From the NCBI GenBank assembly GCA_964522405.1, contig CAZFTR010000006.1:2430-66429 (forward strand): a DNA stretch of 64,000 nucleotides, in the 5' to 3' direction. A program made the position numbers and the translations under genes. Below, piece by piece: positions 3,208-28,069 of this stretch (position 1 is the stretch's first letter; each line of letters begins with the position of its first letter). The notes below the pieces were generated by a model. It saw nothing but the letters and a program-made list of their open reading frames with translations. It made no database searches and had not been told where the DNA came from. Source of the stretch: an uncultured Gammaproteobacteria bacterium (GTDB lineage: Bacteria > Patescibacteriota > Patescibacteriia > Magasanikbacterales > UBA922).

Positions 3208-6200
3208 ATGCGTGGGTCCACAAGACACACAATTATGCAGATAAAAACGGCAGTCAAAAAACTACTGCCTAGTAAGCTTAAACGTTATCAAAAAATAGCG
3301 CTTTTTGCGTTCGTTTTGCTTGGATCATTATTTTTTATTTCGAGTGTTGCTCAGGCAGGACAAGGTCCGGTTACTGATCTTATCAATGGTTTAATCAGTG
3401 CTGTATCTTGGATGCTAATTGTTACTGCTCGTATTTGTATTGGTTTTACTATATTTTTCCTAAGATTTTTTATAACTTTGGCCAGCTACAATGATTATAT
3501 AAATGCCGATATTGTTAAGCTGGGTTGGATCATGGTTCGTGATGTGGCCAATATGGGATTTGTAGTGGCTATGTTGGTTATTGCTTTTGCTACAATTCTT
3601 GGAATTGAGCAATATGAATTCAAAAAAGGTCTGGTAAAAGTCATACTGGCAGCAGTATTTATCAATTTCAGTAATTTGATTGCTCAGGTTTTTATTGACG
3701 CAGCACATGTTTTTACAATTACATTTTTAAACGCAATTTCAGTTACAGCAGGTGGTAATCTGATCACCATGTTCCAGCTCGATAAGATGCTGGATTTTGC
3801 TTCGAACAAGCCTCCTGGTGAGCTTAAGTTTGAAGTTCTGGGTGGTTCTATAGTTGCCTTTGTTTTTTCATTTATGGCTATGGCAGCTATGGGAGCCTAT
3901 GTTCTCGTTATGATGCTTCGTGTAGTTTTGCTTTGGGCTCTTATAATTTTGTCACCACTTGCTTATATTTTTGCAGTTTTACCGAAGACTGAGAAATATT
4001 CTCAAGAATGGTGGAAAGAATTTGGAGAGCAGGTCATGGTGGCGCCAATCATGGTATTTTTCCTATGGTTGTCTTTTGCAGCGCTCGGAAGCGGACAAGC
4101 GCTTGAACAAATCAATTCTTCCCCAGGTGCAGTACCACTGAAGATAAAAACCACAACTGACTATTCTGTATCTTTGACCAAAATTTCAACTTGGGAAAAC
4201 ATGGCCAATTTCTTGTTGGCTATAACTTTCATGTATATTGGTATTCAAAAAGTTGGTGAATCAGGCGCTTATGGAGGAAAAATTCTGCAAAATACCATGA
4301 GTACAGCCAAGAAGATCGGAGTTATTGCAAGTGGATATGCCACAGGAAGATGGTTGGTTGGCGGCGCAGCAGATGTCGGTAAAAAAGGTGTAAAAGAAGG
4401 TCTTTATCGACTTCCTCTTGTTGGTGGAGAAAAATGGGAAAGATATGCTAAGACTTTTGGTCATGGAATAAAAGGTATGTACATGGGTAAGGGTTTTGAA
4501 ATTACAGAAAAGGGTGAGCAGATACAGGGGGATTTGCGCGAAGAACAGACATTGGCAAAAGCATTAAAGGCTGGTGGTTCAGAAGCACTGGCTGGAGATA
4601 TAGAAAGATTAGAAGCACAGCAATCGGCAGCTAATATCAATTTAGAGGGTCAAAGAACAAACTTAGAAGCACAAGAGGCCGCTGGAGATATGGTGAATGC
4701 AGAGAAGACTAGAGCAGGTATAGCAGAAACAGAACGTGAGCTCGAAACCATAGAAGGTCATCTTGCAACAAATAAGAGGGTTAAGGAAAGAATTGACCGT
4801 GAAGGTTATACAGCGGATGATGTGGATGAAATTGAGCAAAATATCCAAGATCTGCAAAAACAATTAAAAGGTCAAGTTGGTGGTCGAGGCGGAGGAAGAG
4901 TGAGTGGCCTAATAGGTGCTATGGCTCGCGCCAATATCAAATCTCAAAAACGTCTCGCTAAAACTGAAAGACAGGCAGATGAAAGAAAACAATTACTCTG
5001 GAAAAGAACCGGTTCCCAGGCTGGTGGTTATTTGGTTGGAATGGGTCGTGTCGGTGATGTATACAGAGGAAGAGAAGCACAAGATCGTGTGGAGCGTGGC
5101 TGGCTAGCAGCTGAGTCTATGCGCTCCAAGGCCAAAGATGAAGAGTATGAAACCATGGGAAAAATGGAAGTTCTGGCCAAGCCACGTCTTAAATACAATG
5201 TAAATACTGGAGAGATTACTTATGAAGATACCAAAGGAACTGTAGCAGAGAGAATAGCAGAGCATGAAGTTGGACGTGATCAGTATCAAGATGCAATTAA
5301 GAAGCTGCAAGGTGAGGCAAGATTGAAAATTGTTGCTGATTTTGATGCTAATATGTCAAAATCTAATAATATTTCAGCAGAAATAGATAAATTGAAAAAA
5401 GAATTAGAAAATGTTGATAGTCCGGAATTTGCCAATAAAATTAAAAAGAGAATTGAACAGTTGGAGCAAGAGTTATCAGGTGTGGAGAGGGGAAGTGAGG
5501 AAGGACAGAAGTTGACTGATGAAATTAAAGTTTTTAAGGGTGTTAGAGATTCATTAGCTTTTGCTCAAGCTCAAAAAAATATACAGGATTTAGAAGCTCA
5601 AACCACTGCAGACGGTTTTGACCCAAGTTCTGAGAAGGGTCAGGAAATGTTGCGTGAATTGGAGCGTCTAAGAGAAGAATTTAGTGCAGAAGGTGGAGAA
5701 CAGAAAATACAAAAATGGGAAAGTTGGAAAACAGATCTAGACGATGGAATTCTTCATGAAGAGAGAAGAAGAGAGCAGAATAGAGAGATTACTGAACAAA
5801 AAAGAGAAGAATTGAAAACAGTTACCGATGAAGATGAACGAGCTAGGATTATAAAAATGATCGAAAGAGGAGAGGAGCATGACTCCAAATCTGCTTCAAT
5901 AATTACAGATTTAAAATCTCGACGATCATTACTTGATGATCCTGATAATTTAGATTTGGTTGAAAAAGAAATTGATGCTGCTCAAAGAAGATTCACAGAT
6001 TGGGTTCCAGCTGATGCTGAAGAGGCTGAGGCGTATAGAGCAGAGAGAACTGAGAAAGAGGCAGAGTTGGCGAGGTTGAGAGAAGAATACGCTCCTTTTG
6101 CGGAGGATGATGTTAGGGCTAAAGAATTACAAGAACAAATTTCTCAAAAAGAGGCTCAGTTAAATGGTATTGATATTAATAGCGATGAAGGAAGAGCTCG

Positions 6201-9200
6201 TTTGCAAGCGCAACAAGAATTACCTGAGGATTTAAGGTTGTTGGAGTCCATGGACGGATATATGTATGGTTTGCAATATTATAGAGATTGGTCACAAGCT
6301 AGACATGACTCTCAAGATGAAGATTTAACTCAAGATGAGAGAGATCAAGCTGCTCAGAGATTTGCAGATATGGATGCTGTGTTTACTGATCACAATTCAA
6401 ATGAAAGAAAAGCTTTTAATAGAGTGGTTGGCATTCAAAATGGTTTAAGTGATGAAATCAGAGGTTATGAAGATAGAAAAAGAGAGATTGATACTGAGAT
6501 GCAAGGATTGCAAGCTATAATAGATGATCCAAATGAATCAGATGAAAACAAGGCTACTGCTGCCCAAAGCATAGGTACTTTAAATGCTGAAAAAGCAGAT
6601 ATTGATACCAATCATGCAAGAGCAGAACGTAGACATGGTATGATAGCTGATGTGTTTTCTAATGATGATTTAGATACAGCACTAAATCAAACAATCACTG
6701 AAAAGATAGGGCAACTAGATGAAGCCATTGCAAAACAATTAGTTGATTTTGGTCCTGCCGGTAGAGCTGGAACCGAAAGAGAAATAGAAGATTTGCGTGC
6801 TGAACATACTGAACGGACGGCAGCAAAAAGAACTCAAGTCCAAGCTGCTCGCCAAAGCGCCAAAGCAGCAATCAGTGCTCAGATAGATGATCAACAAGCA
6901 GCACTCAAAAAAGTACAACAAGGCGTTGTCAAGACAATGACCGGTGTAACCTATGGTTCATTCTTACAAACCAAGGCAGAAGCGCAAATAGTAAGCGAAA
7001 TTCTTGATGCAGATGAAAAGAGATTGGTAGAAGGTCAACTTCAGAAGGAATATAATCTTGGTGCTTTGGTTGATGCCGCTGCTTCTCAAGACAATCGAGG
7101 AGATTGGAGTAAGAGTGTGCAAGCGGCTCGTGAAGAAGGAAAAGTAATCGCAGCTGAGATCGATAAAAAAAGAAAAATTGAAATTGGAAATTTTGATAGG
7201 CAGCTTAGCGGTTTACAAGATAAAAGAGGAGAACTGCAGAAGCAGGCTGATACTTATGGAGCTGCTTCTAGAATTGAAAAAGCAATGACCGGGCTTGATG
7301 CCAAAGCACAAGAATTGAGAGATCAGAAAGATGCGGTTGATGCTAGCGCTGACTCTGATCAAAATAAAAAGAAAAAGAAAGATGCTCTTGATAAGCAACT
7401 GGCTGCTCTGGCACAAAACAGACAAAAAATGGCTGATGATTTGAAGAAAGCCACAAAAGATCGAGATAAGCTTGCTGGTGTGGAAAAAGGAATGTCAGAC
7501 GATGAAAAGAAGACGAAGAGAGAAGAAGGTGAGGCTGCCATTAAGACACAATTAAATACTACTGATTCAGACATATTTACTCTTTCTTCAACTATAAAAG
7601 ATAAAGAAAAAGCTTTGGAAGAAACTGATACTTACTGGGCAGAATTGATGCGCAGAAAAAAACAAAATGCAAGAAAGGTAAAAGATGAACAAACCAGCCT
7701 CGATAAAAGGGCTAATCGATTGCGTTCTGGAGACACTGGTGCTGCCAATGAGATCATTGAATCTATTGAAACAGCTCTTAGTGAAGAACAAGCTAAACCT
7801 GTCGCAGCCAGAGATGAAGCAAAAATTGACAAACTAAAAGGTGATCTTACTTCCATGCGCAAGATTAAGTCCAAGATTGGAAGGGCAGGTCTGGCTTGGC
7901 GCTATGGTGTGGCCAAAGGTAAGCAGGCTGATGCTACTCGTGGTTATAAATATGCTCATAATCTCTTGCTTTCAGAAGCAGAACAGAGGGCAATTCATGA
8001 TGAAAGAGGACTTGATACACCGAAATCAACTCTTACTGAACTGATTGAGGAATATGGAAAGAGTTTTGGTGAGATGTCAGTTGATAGTTTTGTAGCCAAT
8101 GCCGGACCTATGCTAACTAAAATGCTCAAGAAAAATAAAGCAGGTACTATGACTGAGCAAGATCGAGCAGCTCTCATGGGACTTTTTAAGCGTGGGTTTG
8201 ATCGAGCTTGGATTGATGACGCTATTTATGCCATTATGGACAATGAAGAAGCCAAAGAATTAATTGGTGATGAGTTGGGATGGACAAATTCAAAGTATTC
8301 TGATGAAAAAGTAAGAGATATTCAAATGCTTTTTGCCACTGGAGCAAATGTTGATTTTGTAAAAGACAATGCTGTGGTAACTTCAATTTCAGATGTTCTT
8401 GAAAATGATCATGGAATTAGAAATACAGAAGAAGTGATGAAGATGATGAGCACAGGTGTTTATTTGGATAAATCAGGTGTGGATGTTAGTCAACAAGTAC
8501 ATGATAAAGTTCGTGAATCAATGGCGTCTACCAATACAAAATTCAGTAGTGAACAAGAACAGAATTTTGTAAATTTCTTTAAGCATCTAGTTAAGGGAGA
8601 TGAGCAGGCATTGCTGGACGTGCAATCTCAGAGAAATAAAATTGTTGGTGGTTGGATGAAAGAAATCAGAGCCAGACAATCAGAAATGCAATATTTAGGT
8701 AATCTGCGTCCGGAAGCCATTGCCAACGGCCACTATGAAAACGCCGGTTGGGCTCTGACCCGTGAAGTTGGTGGTGGTGAATCACTCTATGTAGCTCAGG
8801 GTTTGAGAAGCGCTAGAGCTCATGTGATGGGAGATGTGAGAAAATCAGATGTGCGAACTCGTGCTAAATCTCAGACTCATTCTTGGGCTGATCTGGATGA
8901 GAGAAATGGACAAGTAGTAACCCAGATCAGAGAAGGTCAATTTACAGATACTTTCAATGGTATTGATCCTAGAACTTTTAACAGTATTAACCCGCGTGCT
9001 CGTGTGCATATGATGGGTCTTTCCGGTAGTGATAAATACTCTGATTTTCGAGATGGATCTGATGGTTCATTTACAGCAGCTCGAATGACTGATAGTACCG
9101 GCGCGCTTACCAATGCCGGAAAAACTTGGTCTCAAGAACTTTCTCAGGATAGTGTGTATGGTAGTCATTTCAAAAAAGCCAAAACTAGAGATCGCCAACA

Positions 9201-9534
9201 GGAATTGATGTCAGCCGGTATTATGAATAGGCTCTATGCTCGTGAGATTCGTGGAAATACTCATGGATTCCTCATGCTTGCTGCAGAAGCTGCCGGTATG
9301 GATCCAACCCAGGCAGCGCGTGATGGTAAAATTAATTTTAAAATGTATAATCCCGCAGAAGGAAAAGAAATAAGATATCGAGATGTAAACAGATTGATCG
9401 ATGATTTCAATAGAGGAGATTGGGAAATGGATGCCAATGGAAGATTTAGTAGAAGTTCTAAACCTTCATCTCAATTGCAACATTTCACTCCGTCAAGTGG
9501 AAAGGCAGATGAGGATTATTATCTCGATGAATAA
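3208..9534 (+). CDS. Giant membrane protein: N-terminal TrbL/VirB6-like polytopic domain fused to ~1700-aa charged coiled-coil region
   Basis: 2108 aa; signal peptide plus about 6-7 TM helices in the first ~330 aa, then long E/K/R/Q/A-rich heptad-like sequence; genomic context with PrgI-like and VirB4. Confidence 0.55.
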   Translation: MRGSTRHTIMQIKTAVKKLLPSKLKRYQKIALFAFVLLGSLFFISSVAQAGQGPVTDLINGLISAVSWMLIVTARICIGFTIFFLRFFITLASYNDYINADIVKLGWIMVRDVANMGFVVAMLVIAFATILGIEQYEFKKGLVKVILAAVFINFSNLIAQVFIDAAHVFTITFLNAISVTAGGNLITMFQLDKMLDFASNKPPGELKFEVLGGSIVAFVFSFMAMAAMGAYVLVMMLRVVLLWALIILSPLAYIFAVLPKTEKYSQEWWKEFGEQVMVAPIMVFFLWLSFAALGSGQALEQINSSPGAVPLKIKTTTDYSVSLTKISTWENMANFLLAITFMYIGIQKVGESGAYGGKILQNTMSTAKKIGVIASGYATGRWLVGGAADVGKKGVKEGLYRLPLVGGEKWERYAKTFGHGIKGMYMGKGFEITEKGEQIQGDLREEQTLAKALKAGGSEALAGDIERLEAQQSAANINLEGQRTNLEAQEAAGDMVNAEKTRAGIAETERELETIEGHLATNKRVKERIDREGYTADDVDEIEQNIQDLQKQLKGQVGGRGGGRVSGLIGAMARANIKSQKRLAKTERQADERKQLLWKRTGSQAGGYLVGMGRVGDVYRGREAQDRVERGWLAAESMRSKAKDEEYETMGKMEVLAKPRLKYNVNTGEITYEDTKGTVAERIAEHEVGRDQYQDAIKKLQGEARLKIVADFDANMSKSNNISAEIDKLKKELENVDSPEFANKIKKRIEQLEQELSGVERGSEEGQKLTDEIKVFKGVRDSLAFAQAQKNIQDLEAQTTADGFDPSSEKGQEMLRELERLREEFSAEGGEQKIQKWESWKTDLDDGILHEERRREQNREITEQKREELKTVTDEDERARIIKMIERGEEHDSKSASIITDLKSRRSLLDDPDNLDLVEKEIDAAQRRFTDWVPADAEEAEAYRAERTEKEAELARLREEYAPFAEDDVRAKELQEQISQKEAQLNGIDINSDEGRARLQAQQELPEDLRLLESMDGYMYGLQYYRDWSQARHDSQDEDLTQDERDQAAQRFADMDAVFTDHNSNERKAFNRVVGIQNGLSDEIRGYEDRKREIDTEMQGLQAIIDDPNESDENKATAAQSIGTLNAEKADIDTNHARAERRHGMIADVFSNDDLDTALNQTITEKIGQLDEAIAKQLVDFGPAGRAGTEREIEDLRAEHTERTAAKRTQVQAARQSAKAAISAQIDDQQAALKKVQQGVVKTMTGVTYGSFLQTKAEAQIVSEILDADEKRLVEGQLQKEYNLGALVDAAASQDNRGDWSKSVQAAREEGKVIAAEIDKKRKIEIGNFDRQLSGLQDKRGELQKQADTYGAASRIEKAMTGLDAKAQELRDQKDAVDASADSDQNKKKKKDALDKQLAALAQNRQKMADDLKKATKDRDKLAGVEKGMSDDEKKTKREEGEAAIKTQLNTTDSDIFTLSSTIKDKEKALEETDTYWAELMRRKKQNARKVKDEQTSLDKRANRLRSGDTGAANEIIESIETALSEEQAKPVAARDEAKIDKLKGDLTSMRKIKSKIGRAGLAWRYGVAKGKQADATRGYKYAHNLLLSEAEQRAIHDERGLDTPKSTLTELIEEYGKSFGEMSVDSFVANAGPMLTKMLKKNKAGTMTEQDRAALMGLFKRGFDRAWIDDAIYAIMDNEEAKELIGDELGWTNSKYSDEKVRDIQMLFATGANVDFVKDNAVVTSISDVLENDHGIRNTEEVMKMMSTGVYLDKSGVDVSQQVHDKVRESMASTNTKFSSEQEQNFVNFFKHLVKGDEQALLDVQSQRNKIVGGWMKEIRARQSEMQYLGNLRPEAIANGHYENAGWALTREVGGGESLYVAQGLRSARAHVMGDVRKSDVRTRAKSQTHSWADLDERNGQVVTQIREGQFTDTFNGIDPRTFNSINPRARVHMMGLSGSDKYSDFRDGSDGSFTAARMTDSTGALTNAGKTWSQELSQDSVYGSHFKKAKTRDRQQELMSAGIMNRLYAREIRGNTHGFLMLAAEAAGMDPTQAARDGKINFKMYNPAEGKEIRYRDVNRLIDDFNRGDWEMDANGRFSRSSKPSSQLQHFTPSSGKADEDYYLDE

Positions 9535-9543
9535 AAAATAATT

Positions 9544-10737
9544 TTGGCGCTAATTAAAAATATGTTTTCATTGCCAACTATAATAATGCAACTTTATCCG
9601 GGTAAGACTGAAGAAGAGATTCAGGCTATTTCTGATGCTTGTCTTAGGGGTGGAGCAAATTATTATCACCGAACTTGGAAAGAAGTAAAAAAAGAAGATC
9701 TGGGCAAAGAAGAGGTTATTCTTAATTTGATTCGCACTATTCACACTTCTCAGCATTCATATTGGGGCGGGGTTGACGAAATTATGAGATCATTGGAAGA
9801 ATGGTCAGACGGAATAATTATTTTTGAAGGCCTAAACAAAGAACAAAATGAATTTTATCAGAGATTTTATTGTTTTATTGGATTTTTGAATTTTGCTTAT
9901 ATTGAATTTAAGAGAAAATTATTTTTGCTTGAATCTAGATTTCTTGTTTTGGCCTGTATCTGGGAAATTCCGGTCTATGTCAATGTACAACTTTATTTTT
10001 CCAGATATGCCTTTGTGGAAGGTATGAGAAATGATGCTATTCTCATGGCTGATTCTATTGAGAGAAATTGGGCGCCGGTAGGAGAAGAGGGTAGAGCGGA
10101 ATTAACTGTTGAAGAGTGGGTTAGGAAATTCAATGAAAAACCATTTACTAATTTTGGTGGTAGAATTGATGATTATTTTGTAGATAATTTGGAAGTAAAT
10201 AGATTTGATCAAGGAGTTCAAAATGTTTTGAGAAAAATCTTTACTCTTTATTGGGGGCTTAGATCCGGATCTGTCTGGAGAGAAATTTCAGAAGATTTGC
10301 ATATTGCCGGATATGAAAACAAAAAAGTGAGAGAAAATAAGACTGCAGATCAATATTACTTGCAAATGCTCCAAGAAGCTGATAAAGAAGGATTTCTTAT
10401 CTGGCTCACGAGTTATGATCATTTTGTAGATTGGGTACTTGCTGTTGGAAAAAGTGATGAGTTTATGAATCAATTATTTTATATTCTTACTCAGAAAGTT
10501 GATTTGGATGATGTTGAAGAATTAGGTTATTTTGTAGATTTGATGGAGGCTTTGCAAAAAAATGAATGGTCACTTGGTTCTGATTTGGTTTACTATGATG
10601 AGGAAACTTCAGGTTTTAGATGGAATCAAGACATAATTGAAGCTCTAAAAGAAGAGGTTGAGTATGTAAAATTATATGGAGAAAAACCAAGACCCCAAGT
10701 GTTAACTATGCCTGAGAAATTAGATATAAAAGAATAG
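9544..10737 (+). CDS. Hypothetical protein (T4SS-cluster associated)
   Basis: 397 aa ORF, coding-like composition, no recognised motif. Confidence 0.5.
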   Translation: MALIKNMFSLPTIIMQLYPGKTEEEIQAISDACLRGGANYYHRTWKEVKKEDLGKEEVILNLIRTIHTSQHSYWGGVDEIMRSLEEWSDGIIIFEGLNKEQNEFYQRFYCFIGFLNFAYIEFKRKLFLLESRFLVLACIWEIPVYVNVQLYFSRYAFVEGMRNDAILMADSIERNWAPVGEEGRAELTVEEWVRKFNEKPFTNFGGRIDDYFVDNLEVNRFDQGVQNVLRKIFTLYWGLRSGSVWREISEDLHIAGYENKKVRENKTADQYYLQMLQEADKEGFLIWLTSYDHFVDWVLAVGKSDEFMNQLFYILTQKVDLDDVEELGYFVDLMEALQKNEWSLGSDLVYYDEETSGFRWNQDIIEALKEEVEYVKLYGEKPRPQVLTMPEKLDIKE

Positions 10738-10743
10738 AAAATT

Positions 10744-12246
10744 ATGCCTCCAGCTGTTAAAAAACAGACTCAATCAGCCCAAGGTCCTGTTAATCAGGGC
10801 ATTTTGGTTAAAAAGGCAGACGGTAGTACAGTTCGAGTTTCTTTTGATGAATTTAAAAGACTCAGAGAAAACATTTCTAGGAAACAGCCGGCAGAACAGG
10901 TTGTAGAGCCACCGGCTATACCGAAAAAAAGATCTGAAAAAGTAGCAAAAAAAGTAAAAGATTTTGCAGAAAAAGAACAGATATCTTCTATAAAAGGTCA
11001 ACGCATTGCCAGGAAGAGACCTGGTCTTTTGCAAAAAAAGAGAGCAGTAGCTCCGCCGCAACCTGTTCAGAAAAAGATCGAAGATCAGGTTAAAACCAAG
11101 ATGCCTTTGTCTGATCCAAGAATAATTCGTGCTAGAAAGACCAAAACTGTAGTCAGCAAACCAAAAATTTCAGCTCCAAAATTGACAAAAAAAGATTCTC
11201 TACCTCTTTTGCATGAAAAACTTGAAGAGCAGGATCTGATTGAGAGGGATTTATCTGATATTACAACTCATGATCATATTGTTGACGAAGTTGTGCAAGA
11301 GTTTCCCATGTCAATTGCTCCTGAGCTTCAGATGCGCATGAGATCTCTTATTGTTTCTTTTTTAAGAGGAGTTCGAGATAAGCATCAGTTTCATGAATAT
11401 GCTATACAGGCTGCGGGGAGCGGTGGTATTGGTTTGACTGATGAACAAGCTTCTAGGTTGGTACTTGTTATAGAAAAAAATAGAAAAGAGTATGAAAGTG
11501 GAAAAATAGAAAAAACCAAGAGTCAAGCAAAAAAAGCAGTTTTGAGTAGTAGGCTCAAAGCTCGAGGAGTACCAGTTAAACCTGTTAGCGCTTATAAGCC
11601 AGAAACTAAAAAGATTCAAAAACAAAACCCATCAAAAATTCAAAAAGCTCTTGTCAAAGAACCAATAGATGATCTGGCAACCACAACTCCGCTAGTGGAT
11701 AGTTTTATTGATCAGGCAATTGCCAAGAAGCAGGCAGAAAAAGTTAATGTGGTTAAAAAGGAACCAACAATAGAAGAACAAAAGCCTGAAGCTAGAAATA
11801 TCGATTTAGTAGAAGCTGTAAAAAATATACAATCAAGACCGACTACACCGACCATAAAAACCAGTGTTGTCAATCAAAAGAAAACAAATAAGCTGGTACA
11901 TGATGTTAGTCATATAAGAACAGAGCATAAGACTGTCGGTCCTCAGGAAGAAATGTTGAGATATGCCAAAATTGATTTTAATAGATTAGCCAGTGACCCC
12001 GAGCATGCTGCCAGACGTTTGATTGCTAAGTTTAATGGTTGGAAAGAAGAGTCTTTTATGATGTATCTGCAAGCTAGAGCTGCATGGTTTAAAAGTCCTT
12101 TATACAAACAATTTCAAGACTCTGCGTTGAAGGCTATTAATAAACGTTTAACTATAAAAAAAACAGTTGAAGGTTCAAAAGATCTAGGATTGTCTTTGCC
12201 GGAATTTCTAGCTATTCTTGAGGTAAATAAAGCGCTGGCTTTATAA
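10744..12246 (+). CDS. Hypothetical lysine-rich basic protein (T4SS-cluster associated)
   Basis: 500 aa; long K/P/Q-rich basic low-complexity N-terminal two thirds, structured C-terminus. Confidence 0.5.
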   Translation: MPPAVKKQTQSAQGPVNQGILVKKADGSTVRVSFDEFKRLRENISRKQPAEQVVEPPAIPKKRSEKVAKKVKDFAEKEQISSIKGQRIARKRPGLLQKKRAVAPPQPVQKKIEDQVKTKMPLSDPRIIRARKTKTVVSKPKISAPKLTKKDSLPLLHEKLEEQDLIERDLSDITTHDHIVDEVVQEFPMSIAPELQMRMRSLIVSFLRGVRDKHQFHEYAIQAAGSGGIGLTDEQASRLVLVIEKNRKEYESGKIEKTKSQAKKAVLSSRLKARGVPVKPVSAYKPETKKIQKQNPSKIQKALVKEPIDDLATTTPLVDSFIDQAIAKKQAEKVNVVKKEPTIEEQKPEARNIDLVEAVKNIQSRPTTPTIKTSVVNQKKTNKLVHDVSHIRTEHKTVGPQEEMLRYAKIDFNRLASDPEHAARRLIAKFNGWKEESFMMYLQARAAWFKSPLYKQFQDSALKAINKRLTIKKTVEGSKDLGLSLPEFLAILEVNKALAL

Positions 12247-12314
12247 ATGAGAATAAGTTTATATTTTTTTAAGGAAATGTGTTTTTGGTATATTAAGTGT
12301 GATATAATGTAGGT

Positions 12315-12749
12315 ATGCAACAATTTGTTGTTCCACAATTTATCGATGTAGAAGATAAGATTTTTGGTCCTATTACCATACGACAGTTTATTATTTTATT
12401 GTTTGGTGGACTTTTGATTTTTTTGGCCTTTAGATATGGTGATTTATCTTTGTTTATAACTACAGCAGTTATTGTAGGTGGTCTGTCTCTTACATTTGCA
12501 TTTATAAAAGTGAATGGCCAAACTTTTCATTATTTTTTGCTCAATATTACTCAAACAGCCAAAAAACCATCTCTTAGAATTTGGAATAAAAATTATACCA
12601 AAAAAGAATTAGAGTTTTATAGAAAAGAAGCATCTGATTTTGAACCTATTGAACATATTGAAACCAAAGAAGTAAAAAGAGATAGAATTAGAGATTTGGC
12701 TTTACTTGTAAATACAGGAGGTTTTTACCGTCCAGACGAATATAGCTAG
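12315..12749 (+). CDS. PrgI/VirB3-like small membrane protein
   Basis: 144 aa with two adjacent TM helices, located immediately upstream of VirB4, as in Gram-positive-type T4SS; extended -10 (TGTGATATAAT) upstream. Confidence 0.45.
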   Translation: MQQFVVPQFIDVEDKIFGPITIRQFIILLFGGLLIFLAFRYGDLSLFITTAVIVGGLSLTFAFIKVNGQTFHYFLLNITQTAKKPSLRIWNKNYTKKELEFYRKEASDFEPIEHIETKEVKRDRIRDLALLVNTGGFYRPDEYS

Positions 12750-12753
12750 ATAT

Positions 12754-13446
12754 ATGAAGAACAAAAAAAACAAAAAACAAAAAACAAAAAAACCTTCAAC
12801 TCAGGTTCATTTGCCGATTGCAGAGGTAAAAGACGGTACTGTAGTCCTAAAAGACGGAACTTTGCGAGCTGTTTTGCTTGTTTCCAGTATAAATTTTGCT
12901 CTTAAGTCTGAAGATGAACAGAATGCAGTTATATCAGCTTATGTTGGTTTTTTGAATTCTATTGATTTTCCTTTACAGATTGTTGTTCAATCCAGAAAAT
13001 TACAAATACGACCTTATCTTGAACAATTAGATGAGTTGCAGAAAAAACAAAAAGACAATCAGCTTCTAAGAATGCAGATTGCAGATTATCGTTCATTTAT
13101 CAAGGAGTTGGTTGAAATGGGTCAGATCATGACTAAGAGATATTTTGTGGTGGTTCCTTATGATCCACTTTCAAATAGAAAAAAAAGTTTTTGGAATAGA
13201 TTCAAAGAAGTTGTGAAACCGATTATAAGTATTCGTTTAAAAGAGGAGAGATTTCAAGAGAGAAGAGAGGAGCTAGATTTGAGATTAAGACATGTTAAAA
13301 ATGGTTTATCAAGTATTGGTCTCCGAGTAGAGCAGTTGGATACTCAAACATTGATTGAATTATTTTATGCAACTTACAATCCCGATGTAGGGTTTTCAGA
13401 AACATTGGGAGATGTTGAAGATATAAATATTGAGCGCATGCTCTAA
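12754..13446 (+). CDS. virB4: VirB4/TrbE N-terminal domain (separated from ATPase domain by a single in-frame TAA)
   Basis: 230 aa; motif AEVKDGTVVLKDGTLRAVLLVSSINFALKSEDEQ typical of the VirB4 N-terminal domain; same reading frame as the downstream ORF. Confidence 0.55.
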   Translation: MKNKKNKKQKTKKPSTQVHLPIAEVKDGTVVLKDGTLRAVLLVSSINFALKSEDEQNAVISAYVGFLNSIDFPLQIVVQSRKLQIRPYLEQLDELQKKQKDNQLLRMQIADYRSFIKELVEMGQIMTKRYFVVVPYDPLSNRKKSFWNRFKEVVKPIISIRLKEERFQERREELDLRLRHVKNGLSSIGLRVEQLDTQTLIELFYATYNPDVGFSETLGDVEDINIERML

Positions 13447-13455
13447 AGAATAATT

Positions 13456-15336
13456 ATGGCATTTAAACCTGTAAGTTTTGGACAAGAAGCACCTGAAAAA
13501 AGGCCGTCATTTTTGCGTAAGAAAAAAAGCGAAAAAGAGGTTGAAGAAACTCTGGTAAGTTTGGAAGAAGAGCGATTGTACAGAGAGGGGACAGTGGCTA
13601 TTCGTGATTTGATTGCTCCTTCTGCTTTCAAGGTTGAATCTACTTTTATCCAGCTTGGAAATACATTTTTGCGCACTATTTTTGTAGTAACCTATCCGAG
13701 ATATATTGCAGTTGGTTGGAATACTCCTATTTTGAATTTGAATATTACCATGGATATCAGCATGTTTTTTTATCCTGTGAAATCTACTATTATCCTCAAA
13801 CAACTCAAGAAAAAAGTTGGAGCTATAGAAGCACAGATTTCTGCAGATGCAGAAAAAGGTGCTCCTCGAGATCCGATTCGTGAAACAGCTCTGAGAGATA
13901 TTGAACAGCTTAGAGATGATCTTACTCAGGGAGTTGAACATTTTTTCCAGTACGCTTTTTATGTGACCATTTATTCACAGGACAAAGATGAACTAGACAA
14001 GACTACCGAGGACATTGAAAATATTTTTGGTTCAAAATTAATTTATACCAAAAATGTGCTTTTTCAAGCTGAACAAGGTTTTACTTCTACACTTCCACTC
14101 GGCATAGATGAGTTAAGCATTGCTTTTAACATGAATTCTTCTCCGATAGCAGCTTCATTTCCTTTTGTTTCGTCTGAGTTGACTAGTGATAATGGAATTT
14201 TATATGGTATCAATCGACATAATAATAGTTTAATTTTGTTTGACAGATTTAGTTTGCAAAATGGAAATATGGTAGTTTTTGCTACTGCCGGTGCTGGTAA
14301 ATCTTATGCGATTAAGCTCGAAGTGCTTAGAAGTTTGATGTTTGGAACAGATATCATTGTCATAGACCCGGAGATGGAATACTTGCATCTTGCAGAAGCT
14401 GTTGGTGGTACTTATATAAATATTTCTCTAGGTTCAGATAGCAAGGTGAATCCTTTTGATTTGCCGACCAAGCCGATCGGTGGTGAATCTGCCGAAGATG
14501 TTATCCGAAAAGCTATTAGTACAGTCAAGGGTTTGCTCAAAATTATGTTTTCCGGTTTTACTCCTCAGGAAGATTCTATTTTGGATACAGCACTGAAGGA
14601 AACTTATGCCAAAAAAGACATTACACCATCATCAGATTTTTCAAATGCAGAACCTCCAATTATGCAGGATTTATTGGATATTTTGGAGGGTATGGAAGGT
14701 GCTGAAACCATGGTCCTCAAATTACAAAAATACACAGAAGGTACCTTTTCAGGATTATTTAATTCTCCCACCAATGTTGATATGAACAATCAGCTGGTAG
14801 TTTTCAGTGTGCGTGACTTAGAAGATGAGCTTAGGCCATTGGCAATCTATACTTTGATAAATTATATTTGGGCTTTGGTTCGGTCAGAACTAAAGAAAAG
14901 AATACTGGTAATCGATGAGGCTTGGTGGTTGATGAGACATGAAGATAGTGCCAAATTTATTCATGCCTTGGTCAAACGTTGTCGAAAATACTACCTGGGT
15001 GTTACTACTATTACCCAGGACGTTAATGATTTCTTATTATCACCTTATGGACAAGCAATTATTACCAATTCAGCTGCTCAGCTTTTGATGCGTCAATCTC
15101 CAGCATCAGTTGATTTGGTCAAAAAAGTATTTATGTTGACAGAAGGAGAGAAATATCTTTTACTTGAAGGGGTAGAAGGTGAAGGAATCTTTTTTGCTGG
15201 GAACAAACATGCAGCCATAAAAGTAGTTGCTTCTTATACAGAACATCAACTAATCACATCTGACCCTAAACAGCTTTTAGAGATAGAGCGTTCAAAAGCA
15301 GAATTTAATAAGCAATTCAAAGATCAACAAATTTAA
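13456..15336 (+). CDS. virB4: VirB4/TrbE/CagE-family type IV secretion ATPase (C-terminal ATPase portion)
   Basis: 626 aa; Walker A VVFATAGAGKSYAIK, Walker B LVIDEAWW, conserved VirB4 C-terminal motifs. Confidence 0.8.
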   Translation: MAFKPVSFGQEAPEKRPSFLRKKKSEKEVEETLVSLEEERLYREGTVAIRDLIAPSAFKVESTFIQLGNTFLRTIFVVTYPRYIAVGWNTPILNLNITMDISMFFYPVKSTIILKQLKKKVGAIEAQISADAEKGAPRDPIRETALRDIEQLRDDLTQGVEHFFQYAFYVTIYSQDKDELDKTTEDIENIFGSKLIYTKNVLFQAEQGFTSTLPLGIDELSIAFNMNSSPIAASFPFVSSELTSDNGILYGINRHNNSLILFDRFSLQNGNMVVFATAGAGKSYAIKLEVLRSLMFGTDIIVIDPEMEYLHLAEAVGGTYINISLGSDSKVNPFDLPTKPIGGESAEDVIRKAISTVKGLLKIMFSGFTPQEDSILDTALKETYAKKDITPSSDFSNAEPPIMQDLLDILEGMEGAETMVLKLQKYTEGTFSGLFNSPTNVDMNNQLVVFSVRDLEDELRPLAIYTLINYIWALVRSELKKRILVIDEAWWLMRHEDSAKFIHALVKRCRKYYLGVTTITQDVNDFLLSPYGQAIITNSAAQLLMRQSPASVDLVKKVFMLTEGEKYLLLEGVEGEGIFFAGNKHAAIKVVASYTEHQLITSDPKQLLEIERSKAEFNKQFKDQQI

Positions 15337-15346
15337 TTAGAAAAAT

Positions 15347-15940
15347 ATGTTAACCCTCAGACAAAGAGTTTTTGTGGCAATCAGTATTATTATGGCAGTT
15401 GTTCTTGCTATTGTTTTATTATTTCTTTATAGGAAATCACAAGTACCGACTGAAATAGAATATGATGGTGGAGATCAGCCACTTCAGGCAAGTGAAGAAG
15501 TTGTTAGTGAGACTGAGTTTGAAGTGAGCGGGGGTATATCTGTAATATCTCCAAAACAAGCTATTGAACCGGGCGCGCTTTATGCTCAAAATTTAGCGCG
15601 GGTATTTGTTGAGAGATTTGCAACTTATTCCAATCAAAATAAAAATCAACATATAGAAGATGTAAAGCCCTTAGCAACTGACAGAATGATTAGCTGGATT
15701 GATACACAGAAAATTGAGCAGAATACTAAATATAGCGGTGTTACTACTGATGTTATGAGTATTGAAATACAAGAGCAATCAGAAGAGAAAACAATTGTAA
15801 AAATAAATGCTCAGCAGGTTGTCCGTTCTCAAGTTGATGGACAAGTTGGTCTGTCAGAAGAAATTATTCAGAAAAAAGCCAGAGTTGAACTTATAAAACA
15901 AGCTGGAGAGTGGAAAGTAGATGGATTTTTTTGGGAATAG
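15347..15940 (+). CDS. Membrane-anchored hypothetical protein (single N-terminal TM; possible VirB8-like role)
   Basis: 197 aa, N-terminal TM then soluble domain; position after VirB4. Confidence 0.35.
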   Translation: MLTLRQRVFVAISIIMAVVLAIVLLFLYRKSQVPTEIEYDGGDQPLQASEEVVSETEFEVSGGISVISPKQAIEPGALYAQNLARVFVERFATYSNQNKNQHIEDVKPLATDRMISWIDTQKIEQNTKYSGVTTDVMSIEIQEQSEEKTIVKINAQQVVRSQVDGQVGLSEEIIQKKARVELIKQAGEWKVDGFFWE

Positions 15941-15974
15941 ATTTTTTGGTCATAGTATATTTTAGGAGGGACTT

Positions 15975-16700
15975 ATGAATTTAAAAAAATATTTTAAAAC
16001 ATTTTTGTATTTATCAAAAGAGGCTTTGTTTCCTCTTTTTTGTATCTCTTGTTCAGCTGAGGGTGATATTTTATGCCAGACTTGCTACATAGCCCTTGAG
16101 ACATATGCTGTTTTTGCCTGTCCTGTTTGTGGTCTCAATAATAATACAGGAGAGGTTTGTAAAAAGTGCTTGTCAGATTCATTTCTACAAAAACATCTTG
16201 CTCTTGGTAGATTTTCAGAAGATTCAATAATACAAAAATTATTGTATGAATATAAGTATAATTATGTCTTGGATATTTTGAAAATTTTTGAGAAATTAAT
16301 TGATAATTTTATTGATAGATATAAGAGTTTTTTTCTTGAAATTGATTTTATTGTTTCAGTTCCACTTCATAGGAGGCGTTTTGCAGAAAGGGGATTTAAT
16401 CAAGCAGATGACCTTGCTTTGGTTTTAGCTTCTAAGATTGATCGGCCTGTCTTGGATTCAGTCTTAAAGAGGATTGTAAATACTTCTCAACAAGCCAAAT
16501 TAACCAAGACCGAAAGACAGAAAAATATAGATAGCGCTTTTGTTATAAACCAAAAAAATTCTCTAAATTTAGCCAATAAATCATTATTGTTAGTTGATGA
16601 TGTTTTAACCACTGGCTCAACTATGCAAGCTTGTGCCAGGCAGTTCAAGGATAATTTCAAGGCAGTTAAGATACGGGCATTTACCTTGGCTAGAGGTTGA
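15975..16700 (+). CDS. comFC: ComF family protein (ComFC-like phosphoribosyltransferase)
   Basis: 241 aa; N-terminal CxxC...CxxC zinc finger and C-terminal PRTase motif LLLVDDVLTTGSTM. Confidence 0.7.
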   Translation: MNLKKYFKTFLYLSKEALFPLFCISCSAEGDILCQTCYIALETYAVFACPVCGLNNNTGEVCKKCLSDSFLQKHLALGRFSEDSIIQKLLYEYKYNYVLDILKIFEKLIDNFIDRYKSFFLEIDFIVSVPLHRRRFAERGFNQADDLALVLASKIDRPVLDSVLKRIVNTSQQAKLTKTERQKNIDSAFVINQKNSLNLANKSLLLVDDVLTTGSTMQACARQFKDNFKAVKIRAFTLARG

Positions 16701-16753
16701 CTTTTTTGCCATTTTCATTTACAATGTATTAACCAATATCCAGATACCACTAT

Positions 16754-16840
16754 GGAGAGATGCCTGAGTGGTTGAAAGGGGCACCCTGCTAAGGTGTTGT
16801 ATCCTAACGGGTACCGAGGGTTCGAATCCCTCTCTCTCCG
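16754..16840 (+). tRNA. tRNA-Ser (anticodon GCU)
   Basis: Acceptor GGAGAGA/TCTCTCC, anticodon loop CTGCTAA, long variable arm, T-loop TTCGAAT. Confidence 0.8.
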
Positions 16841-16896
16841 CCGGGCTTTGCCCAGATGTTTTGCACATTGAATAGTTGAATTTTTGTTAAAATGGT

Positions 16897-16986
16897 GGAG
16901 GGATGGCAGAGCGGTTGAATGCGACGGTCTTGAAAACCGTTGTCCGTGAAAGCGGACCAAGAGTTCGAATCTCTTTCCCTCCGCCA
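16897..16986 (+). tRNA. tRNA-Ser (anticodon UGA), CCA encoded
   Basis: Acceptor GGAGGGA/TCCCTCC, anticodon loop CTTGAAA, long variable arm, T-loop TTCGAAT, 3' GCCA. Confidence 0.8.
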
Positions 16987-17066
16987 TTTTAATAAATATA
17001 AAAAGCCACACAGTTTGCGGCTTTTTTTATTTATGCTATATTATTATATATTTATATAATTAAAAT

Positions 17067-25982: not shown

Positions 25983-26166
25983 TTTAGTTTTTCTTAATGT
26001 TTTTCGTTGACAATAATTAGTAATGTTATATACTTTAAATATTGGTAAGTTTGAAGCTCAGTAATCGAACTTTGTATATAAAAATCCCCAAAAGGGGATT
26101 TTTATATACTTTGAAACAATTAAGATTTTTTTAATGGTGTTTATTATAAAATATTATCGGTGGAAA

Positions 26167-26240
26167 GGGCGGAGGCTGGCTGGGCCAAATTCAAACTTAC
26201 CATTTTGAATATTGGAGTTCGATTCTCCCTCCGTCCACCA
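26167..26240 (+). tRNA. tRNA-like element with aberrant arms (anticodon region TAC in an 8-nt loop; possibly tRNA-Val(UAC)-derived or pseudo-tRNA), CCA encoded
   Basis: Acceptor GGGCGGA/TCCGTCC, canonical T-loop GGAGTTCGATTCTCC, 3' ACCA; but 3-nt D-loop and 8-nt anticodon loop cttaccat; followed by terminator. Confidence 0.4.
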
Positions 26241-26370
26241 CTGAATTTGACAAAAAAAATTATAAATGATAATTTAATACTTATATGAATCACCAATGTA
26301 TTATTAAAACTGCTAAGAAGACAAAGAAGATCTCGCTCGCGGGTTAGTGTTTTGTTGTATACATTTACAT

Positions 26371-26396
26371 GTCCCGCAGAAAGCGGGATTTTTTAT
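26371..26396 (+). terminator. Intrinsic terminator (tcccgc-agaaa-gcggga + T7)
   Basis: Seen directly downstream of tRNA-like element. Confidence 0.5.
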
Positions 26397-26431
26397 TGTA
26401 GAAGTGAATTTAATAAAGGATGTGAGCACGA

Positions 26432-28069
26432 GTGGCGTGCTTGTATCCCCTTAGAGTTCATTTCACCGTAAAGAGTAGGGAGAGTTCCTTGAGAAGACAT
26501 CCAGGAAGGCGGAAAAGGGTAGTCGCCAAGTTCGGCGGCAGCTCGGTGGCTTCGGCAGTCATGCTGCTCACCATCTCCGAGATCGTAAAAGACCGGCGAC
26601 GGCGGCAGCGCGATTGGATCGTGGTCTCGGCTGCGGGCAAGCGCAGGCAGGTCAAAGGTGATGTAAAAGTCACTGATCTGCTGATCATCTTGCAGAACTT
26701 GATGGAGGACAGCACGCCCAATGACCACCAGGTCAAAGCGTCAGACTTCCAGACGGTCTGCAAGTGGGCGGGCGGCGAGAACAACCTGAGCGTGGACACA
26801 CTCTGGGAATTCATTGCCGAGCATCATCGCCAGATCGCCAGTCATGACGAGATCAACTTCGACATCGAGCCCATCCTCGGCAAGATCAAGAACGAGATCG
26901 TTACCAAGAAGGGTCGAGCATTCACTGTCAGCCGCGGCGAGTACCTTATGGCGTGCATCGTGGCTCAAGTGCTCGGTTACGAGTTCGTTGACGCGGCTCA
27001 GTTGGTCAAGTTCGACGTCGACCAGGCTGGCAACGTTCGGCTCAACGAGCACGAGACCAAGAAGCAGATCCAGGCTCACTGTCTGGGACACAAGTGCGTC
27101 ATCCCCGGCTTCTACGGCTCGAGCATCGAGAACCAGGATCAGATTCTGGTCTTCTCTCGTGGTGGTTCGGACATCTCGGGGGCGCTGATCGCTGCAGCAC
27201 TTTCGACCGACGTCTACGAGAACTGGACCGATGTGCCTGGCGTGGCCATGGCTGATCCTCGGTTCTTCGGAAAGAACGGCCGACGCTGGGTCAAGTGGAT
27301 CTCGGAGATCAGCTACCGAGAGCTTCGTGAAGCAGTTTACGCCCAGGTCCTCCACGAGGACGCCGTTCAGCCGGTTCGCAAGCACGGGATCCCCATCAAC
27401 ATCCGTTGCACTCTGCGTCCTGATCACCCCGGAACCATGGTGGTGCGAGATCGTCGACCTAACGAACGCCTGGTGCAGATCATCGCGGGCCGTAGTGGCT
27501 TCGTGAGTCTGTGCATTGGTCGGGACGAGAGCAACGACGAGATCGGCTACGCAGCTACCATCCTCGAGGTGCTCAAGGCTGAGGGGATTTGGTTCCACCA
27601 CGTGGCGACCAGTATCGATTCGATCAGTGTCATCATCCCTGCCGAGGCACTGAGCAATGGCAAGCTTCGGGACGCGATTCAGGCCATTCGAGATCAGGTC
27701 GAGCCTGACCGTCTGGTTCCGCTCGACGATTTGGCGCTGATCTGCCTGGTGGGCGACCAGGTGGGTGTCAACTCCAACAAGGTCCTGGCCTATGCTCACG
27801 CCGGGCTCTGGAACGCTGGCATCGAGGGGGTGCGTTTGGTCGAGATGGGGTCGTCTCAGCAGAACGTTATCGTCGGAGTCAACAAGTCTGAGCTCGAGGA
27901 CGCCATACGTGCTCTGCACGACGTGTTCGCCAGCTCTACGTTCTCGGGCAAGCTGCTGGCGCTTGGACGTGCCCGGCTTCGGCTGATGCGTCCGGGAACT
28001 GTCCTCACTCGAGCGGGCAACAAGCTCGGACGGTTGGTGCGAATGGCCAAGTTGCGCCGACAGGCCTGA
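26432..28069 (+). CDS. lysC: Aspartate kinase (amino-acid kinase domain + two ACT domains) with arginine-rich N- and C-terminal extensions
   Basis: 545 aa; KFGGSSV, WIVVSAAG, SRGGSDISGALIAAALSTDVYENWTDVPGVAMADPRF, C-terminal ACT repeats; true start may be TTG at 26489 preceded by AGGGAG. Confidence 0.7.
   Translation: MACLYPLRVHFTVKSRESSLRRHPGRRKRVVAKFGGSSVASAVMLLTISEIVKDRRRRQRDWIVVSAAGKRRQVKGDVKVTDLLIILQNLMEDSTPNDHQVKASDFQTVCKWAGGENNLSVDTLWEFIAEHHRQIASHDEINFDIEPILGKIKNEIVTKKGRAFTVSRGEYLMACIVAQVLGYEFVDAAQLVKFDVDQAGNVRLNEHETKKQIQAHCLGHKCVIPGFYGSSIENQDQILVFSRGGSDISGALIAAALSTDVYENWTDVPGVAMADPRFFGKNGRRWVKWISEISYRELREAVYAQVLHEDAVQPVRKHGIPINIRCTLRPDHPGTMVVRDRRPNERLVQIIAGRSGFVSLCIGRDESNDEIGYAATILEVLKAEGIWFHHVATSIDSISVIIPAEALSNGKLRDAIQAIRDQVEPDRLVPLDDLALICLVGDQVGVNSNKVLAYAHAGLWNAGIEGVRLVEMGSSQQNVIVGVNKSELEDAIRALHDVFASSTFSGKLLALGRARLRLMRPGTVLTRAGNKLGRLVRMAKLRRQA

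Follow-up and report, generated by a model that had tools for sequence, protein, structure and literature searches.

An in-frame TAA separates a TrsD-like gene from a VirB4/TrsE-type ATPase gene in a Patescibacteria T4SS cluster

The locus and its gene neighborhood

The window (the whole stretch of DNA that was analyzed, 64,000 nt) carries two adjacent VirB4-related genes on the forward strand. As read from the sequence, the first (ORF1, 12754-13446, 230 aa) ends in a TAA stop at 13444-13446 and the second (ORF2, 13456-15336, 626 aa) starts with ATG. The gene junction (13444-13455, + strand) consists of the TAA of the trsD-like gene and a 9-nt spacer, AGAATAATT (13447-13455), after which the ATG of virB4 follows directly. 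Each start position equals 1 modulo 3, which places the two genes in one frame, and that TAA is the sole stop between them. An earlier reading of the DNA made without database searches (hereafter, the sequence-only reading) had described the pair as same-frame ORFs separated only by TAA and a spacer, and these coordinates were confirmed. A promoter and terminator scan of positions 9000-17000 returned counts at the level of shuffled sequence, with none inside the spacer.

Gene context was profiled in 80 loci, the closest of 351 confirmed relatives, which do not sample all Patescibacteria but come mainly from Magasanikbacteria, Falkowbacteria and lineages allied to them. Immediately upstream of ORF1 lies the gene for a small PrgI/VirB3-like membrane protein (12315..12749, + strand, 144 aa), which matched Pfam PF12666 PrgI (E 1.3e-8, 35.7 bits, cut-off 27) and has two hydrophobic, TM-like segments (residues 16-34 and 43-61). 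This prgI gene precedes the trsD-like gene, on the same strand, in 79/80 loci. The PrgI/VirB3, TrsD-like and VirB4 genes that characterize the Patescibacteria T4SS cluster (PMC12102498) are thus all present in the window.

Three further genes flank this core, all on the + strand. Downstream, a conserved gene for a 197-aa protein (15347..15940) occupies the same relative position in 56/80 loci; its product has an N-terminal TM-like segment (residues 1-19) and a weak, below-cut-off match to PF25155 NTF2_YvbJ (E 0.009), and is possibly a VirB8-like component. Upstream are a conserved 500-aa gene (10744..12246), found on the same strand ahead of ORF1 in 66/80 loci, and the gene of a giant protein of 2108 aa (3208..9534), found upstream in 38/80. 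The latter has about eight N-terminal hydrophobic segments, all between residues 27 and 290, and could be an extended VirB6-like component. Neither Pfam nor NCBIfam gave a match for 3208-9534, 9544-10737 or 10744-12246, and no relaxase or VirD4 was found by these models among the window genes examined. The cluster is chromosomal-looking, with housekeeping genes (class II aminoacyl-tRNA synthetase, RecO, ComF, SMC) on its flanks.

Two VirB4-related proteins and the position of the split

The TrsD-like gene (12754..13446, + strand) encodes a stand-alone protein homologous to the initial segment of the VirB4 N-terminal domain. It matched the NCBIfam TrsD/TraD model NF041427 (E 2.5e-8) with 34 bits, far under the curated cut-off of 200, and its product is homologous to, yet outside, the narrowly defined staphylococcal-type TrsD subfamily of that model. 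It also matched the N-termini of three NCBIfam VirB4 models (VirB4_plasma 90-234, CD1110 11-117 and VirB4_CagE 4-167). PF26593 TraC-like is assigned in the precomputed annotation of the identical protein and of all 120 closest homologues; a local Pfam-A hmmscan of ORF1 returned no family at E ≤ 0.01. A PDB sequence search with ORF1 gave chance-level matches only, and its kinship with VirB4 is visible only at the profile and fold level. For its AlphaFold model (pLDDT 79), the 13 best PDB fold matches were all TrwK/VirB4 chains, including R388 VirB4, with modest TM-scores (0.40-0.46). These profile and fold matches make the ORF1 product a small homologue of the VirB4 N-terminal part.

The known TrsD of pSK41 was compared directly by accession, since a tblastn search of ORF1 against plasmids had missed the staphylococcal plasmids and returned 31 weak matches, mostly to unnamed small Firmicute genes. 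By BLASTP, ORF1 and pSK41 TrsD share 28% identity (E 7e-8).

ORF2 (13456..15336, + strand) encodes a T4SS ATPase of the VirB4/TrsE type. It passed the cut-off of the NCBIfam CD1110-family VirB4 model NF045971 (349 bits, cut-off 325) and matched Pfam P-loop_TraG (E 2.6e-27; 95.9 bits, cut-off 25.8). The Walker A motif, ATAGAGKS (14281..14304, + strand; residues 276-283), was located from the translation and the TrsE alignment, and is enclosed by Pfam AAA_10 and DUF87 matches at residues 268-333. Residues 242-601 matched the VirB4 C-terminal domain structure 4AG5 (E 6e-47), and residues 270-571 matched TrwK 445-737 (E 4e-6). The protein is collinear with pSK41 TrsE end to end from the N-terminus (24% identity, E 2e-46), and its ATG aligns with the starts of the orthologues and of TrsE. 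The model cut-off, the Walker A motif with the C-terminal domain, and the PrgI/VirB3 neighbor together support assignment as a VirB4/TrsE ATPase.

Placed on the same models, the two proteins are collinear and jointly span a full VirB4, as the sequence-only reading had proposed: ORF1 and ORF2 cover positions 11-117 and 176-730 of CD1110, and 4-167 and 234-725 of VirB4_CagE (TIGR00929). That reading had further put the join at a natural domain boundary, with the N-terminal domain on one side and the ATPase domain on the other, which the matches do not bear out. ORF2 retains about 240-270 residues before its P-loop domain, with the split about 275 residues before Walker A, and the 4AG5 match begins only at residue 242, whereas the N-terminal domain of TrwK comprises residues 15-400 (PMC9259494). 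The split therefore lies inside the classical VirB4 N-terminal domain, around canonical residues 170-230. Measured against a fused VirB4, the TrsD-like protein makes up the first ~170-230 residues, the leading half of the N-terminal domain, and the ATPase gene encodes the remainder of that domain and the motor domain.

Nucleotide identity by codon position (1/2/3) was 0.65/0.81/0.39 for ORF1 and 0.74/0.88/0.41 for ORF2. Since position 2 exceeds position 1 and both far exceed position 3, the two genes are under strong purifying selection, and both are functional.

Conservation of the split and alternative explanations

The junction could be analyzed in 75 of the 80 loci, all from other Patescibacteria species. 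The split falls at the same point in every one (75/75), with the ORF1 homologue ending in a stop and followed by the ATPase gene, so that the small gene is a separate one immediately upstream of a VirB4-type ATPase gene throughout, as it is in pSK41. The stop is TAA in 46 loci, TAG in 19 and TGA in 10, and gaps range from 1 to 235 nt (median 10). At one locus (L065) the trsD-like gene is present and no ATPase gene occurs within 4 kb downstream. The closest 120 homologues of ORF1 (66-77% identity) are 224-247 aa long and include no fused form, and none is fused among the best 150 representatives (132-443 aa) of 2610 matches at E ≤ 0.001 in a library of 1.84 billion proteins.

The sequence-only reading had framed the locus as a VirB4 interrupted by an in-frame TAA, listing a genuine two-polypeptide VirB4 as one of four options. 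The orthologue comparison it called for and the uniformly short relatives favor that option: the split is conserved, and the TAA at 13444-13446 terminates the first gene in the normal way. We conclude that these are almost certainly two real, separately translated and co-transcribed genes of a Patescibacteria T4SS, encoding a TrsD-like protein and a VirB4/TrsE-type ATPase, directly after the VirB3-like prgI.

Among the other explanations, programmed readthrough of the TAA, yielding a fused VirB4 of 860 aa beside or instead of the two products, fares best and is still very improbable. It draws on the shared frame, the short distance of three sense codons from the stop to the ATG, and the third or so of orthologues that are likewise in frame. 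However, relative frames of 0, +1 and +2 occur in 23, 28 and 24 of the 75 loci, and the in-frame share (23/75) is the one third expected by chance; the shared frame here is a one-in-three coincidence. Neither the identity of the stop nor the sequence of the spacer is conserved, many spacers are 1-8 nt long or out of frame, and the pSK41 and Geobacillus pairs are out of frame. No suppressor tRNA was found in the window, whose tRNAs are limited to Ser-GCT, Ser-TGA and Glu-TTC, and TAA is the commonest terminator, ending 34 of the 49 retained window ORFs (≥100 aa). Occasional readthrough might still occur in this genome, but has no comparative support.

A recent nonsense mutation that turned a continuous virB4 into a pseudogene would also leave two in-frame ORFs one stop and 9 nt apart, and fused VirB4s with a homologous N-terminus do exist, both in the CD1110 and Mbov_0397 families and as a 942-aa protein of Vescimonas. 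The common breakpoint with its differing stops, gaps and frames, the lack of fused forms in both sets of nearest relatives (120 and 150), the purifying selection on both halves, and the alignment of the ORF2 ATG with the orthologue and TrsE starts all argue against it, and we regard pseudogenization as exceedingly improbable. Just as remote is a false stop created by an error in sequencing or assembly. Such an error is conceivable wherever a lone in-frame stop occurs, and nothing specific speaks for it here. The junction is base-for-base identical between the Logan assemblies of two runs, SRR31802803 and SRR31802801, and the orthologues all stop at the same point. Reassignment of TAA to a sense codon has practically no credibility, given that the standard bacterial code tiles the window with long ORFs (up to 2108 aa), most of them TAA-terminated, that the homologues end at the same position, and that the in-frame TAA codons which the sequence-only reading had suggested seeking in other genes were not seen in the SMC, class II aminoacyl-tRNA synthetase or RecO genes of the window.

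With two separate genes as the preferred explanation, the products may re-assemble non-covalently into a VirB4-like subunit, by analogy with the R388 structure, in which VirB3 wraps around the VirB4 N-terminal domain (PMC9259494). By the same analogy, it would be through the TrsD-like piece that this subunit docks on PrgI/VirB3 at the membrane. Like nearly every gene in the window (one of the 49 ORFs has a clear AGGAGG and a second a 4-nt AGGA), ORF2 would be translated without a Shine-Dalgarno site, probably by re-initiation near the upstream stop, which would help to balance the two products. The strict conservation of the pair, its tight spacing and the strong purifying selection are consistent with the TrsD-like protein being an obligate partner of the ATPase and do not add a new type of system.

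More tentatively, the TrsD/VirB4 break may be a single ancient event, or even ancestral, with a breakpoint common to pGO1-type Firmicutes and Patescibacteria, and the free TrsD-like piece an independent subunit; we consider this possible but rather doubtful. The piece might then be a VirB3/PrgI-docking adaptor whose stoichiometry or timing could differ from those of the ATPase. If true, this would give a function to TrsD, a protein without an experimental assignment (PMC12102498).

Comparison with known systems

One of the closest counterparts of the pair is trsD-trsE (traD-traE) of the staphylococcal conjugative plasmids pSK41/pGO1 (MPF_FATA, pGO1 subclass), where a VirB4-N-terminus homologue of ~227-230 aa likewise lies directly upstream of an ATPase gene of 626-672 aa. 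The breakpoint is the same, with ORF1 aligning with TrsD and ORF2 with TrsE from its N-terminus. In pSK41, trsD (227 aa) and trsE (672 aa) are separated by a 14-nt gap and lie in different frames. The differences are the low identity (28% and 24%, respectively), the score of ORF1 below the NCBIfam TrsD cut-off, and the setting, since pSK41 is conjugative and encodes a relaxase and a coupling protein close by, unlike the chromosomal-looking cluster of the window. A Geobacillus plasmid has the same arrangement: prgI is accompanied by one gene of 318 aa and by an ATPase gene of 636 aa, and these two overlap by 14 nt.

Fused VirB4 proteins (R388 TrwK, CD1110, Mycoplasma Mbov_0397), along with VirB3-VirB4 fusions, carry in a single chain what ORF1 and ORF2 encode collinearly, and both parts find their counterparts in TrwK, ORF1 through its fold and ORF2 in the ATPase region. 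The chain in the window differs in being divided at ~170-230, within the N-terminal domain. Vescimonas pMM35_02 is the opposite extreme, with PrgI, the TrsD-like part and the ATPase all in the 942-aa protein. When Patescibacteria and some Firmicutes are annotated, a trsD-like gene and a virB4 gene that lie side by side in one frame should be neither flagged as a disrupted VirB4 nor merged nor called pseudogenes.

The remote homology of TrsD to the VirB4 N-terminus has been stated for the Patescibacteria T4SS (Quinonero-Coronel et al. 2025, PMC12102498); the word TrsD is absent from the main text of Guglielmini et al. 2014, where we sought mention of this likeness. In the 2025 survey, TrsD beside virB4 was the most abundant T4SS component of Patescibacteria, with 2,272 TrsD homologues of which 1,664 adjoin virB4, and the TrsD homologue of Ca. 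Southlakia epibionticum, whose T4SS is essential (Wang et al. 2023, PMC10633639), was listed as essential (PMC12102498). The role of the TrsD-like piece bears on a T4SS that is essential to the epibiotic lifestyle in at least one cultivated member of the group. In these systems PrgI/VirB3, TrsD and VirB4 are clustered on one strand, with TrsD adjoining virB4, as in the window. For the VirB6-like polytopic protein and the VirB2-like pilins that belong near virB4, the window offers one candidate, the 2108-aa protein with its N-terminal hydrophobic segments as a possible VirB6-like component. The lineage also matches, the closest homologues being from Magasanikbacteria, and nothing material differs. 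The arrangement is therefore one already known for the ultra-small Patescibacteria, and the window provides another instance of it.

Two adjacent genes and the position of the break

ORF1 (12754-13446, forward strand; 230 aa), a TrsD-like gene, terminates in a TAA at 13444-13446, and a spacer of nine bases (AGAATAATT) separates this stop from the ATG at 13456 that starts ORF2 (13456-15336, forward strand; 626 aa). Inspection of the window sequence bore out these coordinates as given in the sequence-only reading, along with the shared frame of the two ORFs and the TAA as the sole stop between them. The same 230-aa protein, with the next gene 9 nt on, was found in Logan assemblies of two sequencing runs (SRR31802803 and SRR31802801), both contigs of which were identical to the window base for base over the junction. 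No promoter or terminator pattern was found between the ORFs in a pattern scan. The 5' end of ORF1 (12757-12795) consists of A-rich homopolymer runs coding for MKNKKNKKQKTKK; such runs are slippage-prone. The N-terminal ~13 residues of ORF1 are weakly conserved, because many orthologue matches begin at query residue 13-15.

Profile matches identify ORF2 as a VirB4-type ATPase, i.e., to the NCBIfam CD1110-family VirB4 model (349 bits, cut-off 325; model positions 176-730), Pfam P-loop_TraG (E 2.6e-27), and the solved VirB4 C-terminal domain 4AG5 (E 6e-47); it also matches residues 445-737 of TrwK, the VirB4 of R388. ORF1 covers the front that is absent from ORF2 (CD1110 positions 11-117, VirB4_CagE 4-167, and VirB4_plasma 90-234), and matched the TrsD/TraD family of staphylococcal conjugative plasmids with E 2.5e-8, far under the curated cut-off of that family. 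PF26593 was assigned to ORF1 in precomputed annotation, the local Pfam copy gave no match, and a sequence search of ORF1 against PDB returned none. The 13 best PDB matches of its AlphaFold model (mean pLDDT 79, from an input alignment of 47 sequences) were all TrwK/VirB4 chains (Foldseek probability 0.97-1.00), so that the predicted fold agrees with the profile matches to VirB4 at modest TM-scores (0.31-0.46 on the query). A PrgI/VirB3-type protein gene (12315-12749, forward strand) lies directly upstream of ORF1. The conserved genes run in the order prgI, trsD-like, virB4, the last two jointly spanning a VirB4.

The join had been placed at the boundary between the N-terminal and ATPase domains, which is not where it falls. 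Walker A (ATAGAGKS) occupies ORF2 residues 276-283, the match to the solved C-terminal domain begins at about residue 242, and the R388 VirB4 N-terminal domain comprises residues 15-400 (PMC9259494). The break, at about canonical VirB4 residue 170-230, is thus internal to the classical N-terminal domain, the back half of which is kept in ORF2.

Conservation of the split among orthologues

With ORF1 as query, 5.8 billion proteins yielded 6986 matches, the top 120 of which (66-77% identity) were mostly from Candidatus Magasanikbacteria and all 224-247 aa long. Exhaustive phmmer searching covered 1.84 billion cluster representatives, of which 2610 matched at E <= 0.001. Identity fell to ~35% within the best 150, all of which were 132-443 aa long, with no full-length VirB4 among them.

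The comparison of orthologues had been named as a test in the sequence-only reading, and the junction was measured in 80 loci fetched from species-representative genomes. These were the nearest 80 among 351 confirmed relatives, and Magasanikbacteria, Falkowbacteria, Uhrbacteria, Kerfeldbacteria, and unnamed Patescibacteria made up most of the sample. A stop ended the ORF1 homologue and was followed by the ATPase gene in all 75 loci with both parts on the contig. The stop was TAA in 46, TAG in 19, and TGA in 10, the gap ranged from 1 to 235 nt (median 10), and the frame of the ATPase gene relative to the upstream gene was 0 in 23, +1 in 28, and +2 in 24. Half of the junctions had a gap of <= 10 nt, and in eleven just one base lay between stop and start (TAATATG or TAGTATG). 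It follows that the break is old and conserved, with the junction sequence free to vary, and the shared frame in the window is a one-in-three chance outcome.

These splits establish the genuine two-gene arrangement, one of the options raised by the sequence-only reading, whose description of a VirB4 "interrupted" by a stop was mistaken. Programmed readthrough loses its comparative basis, because the shared frame is attributable to chance and the junctions vary. A recent nonsense mutation is ruled out by a break that is conserved while its junction varies.

Nucleotide identity to orthologues by codon position was 0.65/0.81/0.39 for ORF1 and 0.74/0.88/0.41 for ORF2, the pattern left by purifying selection acting on each of the two proteins. 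Under the standard bacterial code long ORFs tile the window, and TAA is the usual terminator here, given that it ends 34 of the 49 non-overlapping ORFs (>=100 aa). The window has no tRNAs other than Ser-GCT, Ser-TGA, and Glu-TTC. A clear AGGAGG Shine-Dalgarno precedes one of the 49 ORFs and a 4-nt AGGA one more, so its absence before ORF2 is normal here. The short gaps at orthologous junctions fit co-transcription and, presumably, close translational coupling.

At one locus (L065), no VirB4 ATPase gene was found in the 4 kb downstream of the trsD-like gene (5977-6642); the DNA there is of higher G+C and has no run of N. TrsD homologues away from virB4 are mentioned in PMC12102498. Many of the closest genomes (loci L003, L004, L006, L007, and others) bear the title "uncultured Gammaproteobacteria bacterium" in MAG TPA_asm records; since they have this Patescibacteria cluster, with proteins 64-70% identical, the titles look like mislabels.

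Neighboring genes and other regions

Just downstream of virB4, a 197-aa protein (15347-15940, forward strand) carries a hydrophobic segment at its N-terminus and weakly matches the NTF2-like family PF25155 (E 0.009), and its position is kept in 56 of the 80 loci. Its layout recalls VirB8-like proteins, which are rarely detectable in Patescibacteria and mostly confined to class ABY1 (PMC12102498). Upstream in the cluster, a 2108-aa protein (3208-9534, forward strand; gene kept in 38/80 loci) with about eight N-terminal hydrophobic segments matched no Pfam family and is possibly a VirB6-like protein in extended form or a surface protein. In 15975-16986, downstream of the cluster, a comF-like gene, which has the only clear AGGAGG Shine-Dalgarno in the window, is kept in position in 53/80 loci and is followed by two tRNA-Ser genes.

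The G+C content of 26001-28000 is 0.53, versus 0.33-0.40 for the other parts of the window; the stretch also has spurious ORFs that overlap on both strands, and no Rfam family matched in it. The real gene here (26432-28069) codes for an aspartate-kinase-like protein, an amino-acid kinase with ACT domains, and the base composition suggests horizontal acquisition of the gene. A PLP-dependent Orn/DAP/Arg decarboxylase gene (28628-29854) comes after it.

Proposed working of the pair and known systems

In R388, VirB3 wraps round the VirB4 N-terminal domain, which also mediates VirB4 dimerization (PMC9259494). The TrsD-like protein may bind the ATPase non-covalently, completing its N-terminal domain, and could supply the PrgI-docking surface at the membrane; the close spacing of the two genes would keep their products balanced.

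The staphylococcal conjugative plasmid pSK41 has trsD (227 aa), a 14-nt gap, and then a 672-aa ATPase gene in a different frame. Its TrsD matched ORF1 (28% identity, E 7e-8), and ORF2 aligned with its ATPase, starting at residue 18 against residue 4 and running to the end (E 2e-46); the breakpoint is therefore identical. A Geobacillus plasmid encodes prgI, a 318-aa gene with an ORF1-like domain, and a 636-aa ATPase gene, the last two overlapping by 14 nt. The opposite state occurs in Vescimonas fastidiosa pMM35_02, where one 942-aa fusion protein (WP_212822118.1; locus L082, 4608-7436) comprises PrgI, a part resembling ORF1 at residues 132-255, and the ATPase at 369-927; its annotation says merely "PrgI family protein". 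Fusion and fission are thus common in the VirB3-VirB4 module, and the split form is one standard state.

In Patescibacteria, TrsD has been reported as a remote homologue of the VirB4 N-terminal portion and the most abundant T4SS component, with 2,221 assemblies yielding 2,272 homologues (1,664 virB4-associated), and the homologue of Ca. Southlakia epibionticum ML1 listed as essential (Quinonero-Coronel et al. 2025, PMC12102498). Wang et al. 2023 (PMC10633639) describe conjugative systems of the Gram-positive type as the nearest to the essential T4SS of Ca. Southlakia epibionticum. Given these accounts, the two-gene arrangement in the window is one already described.
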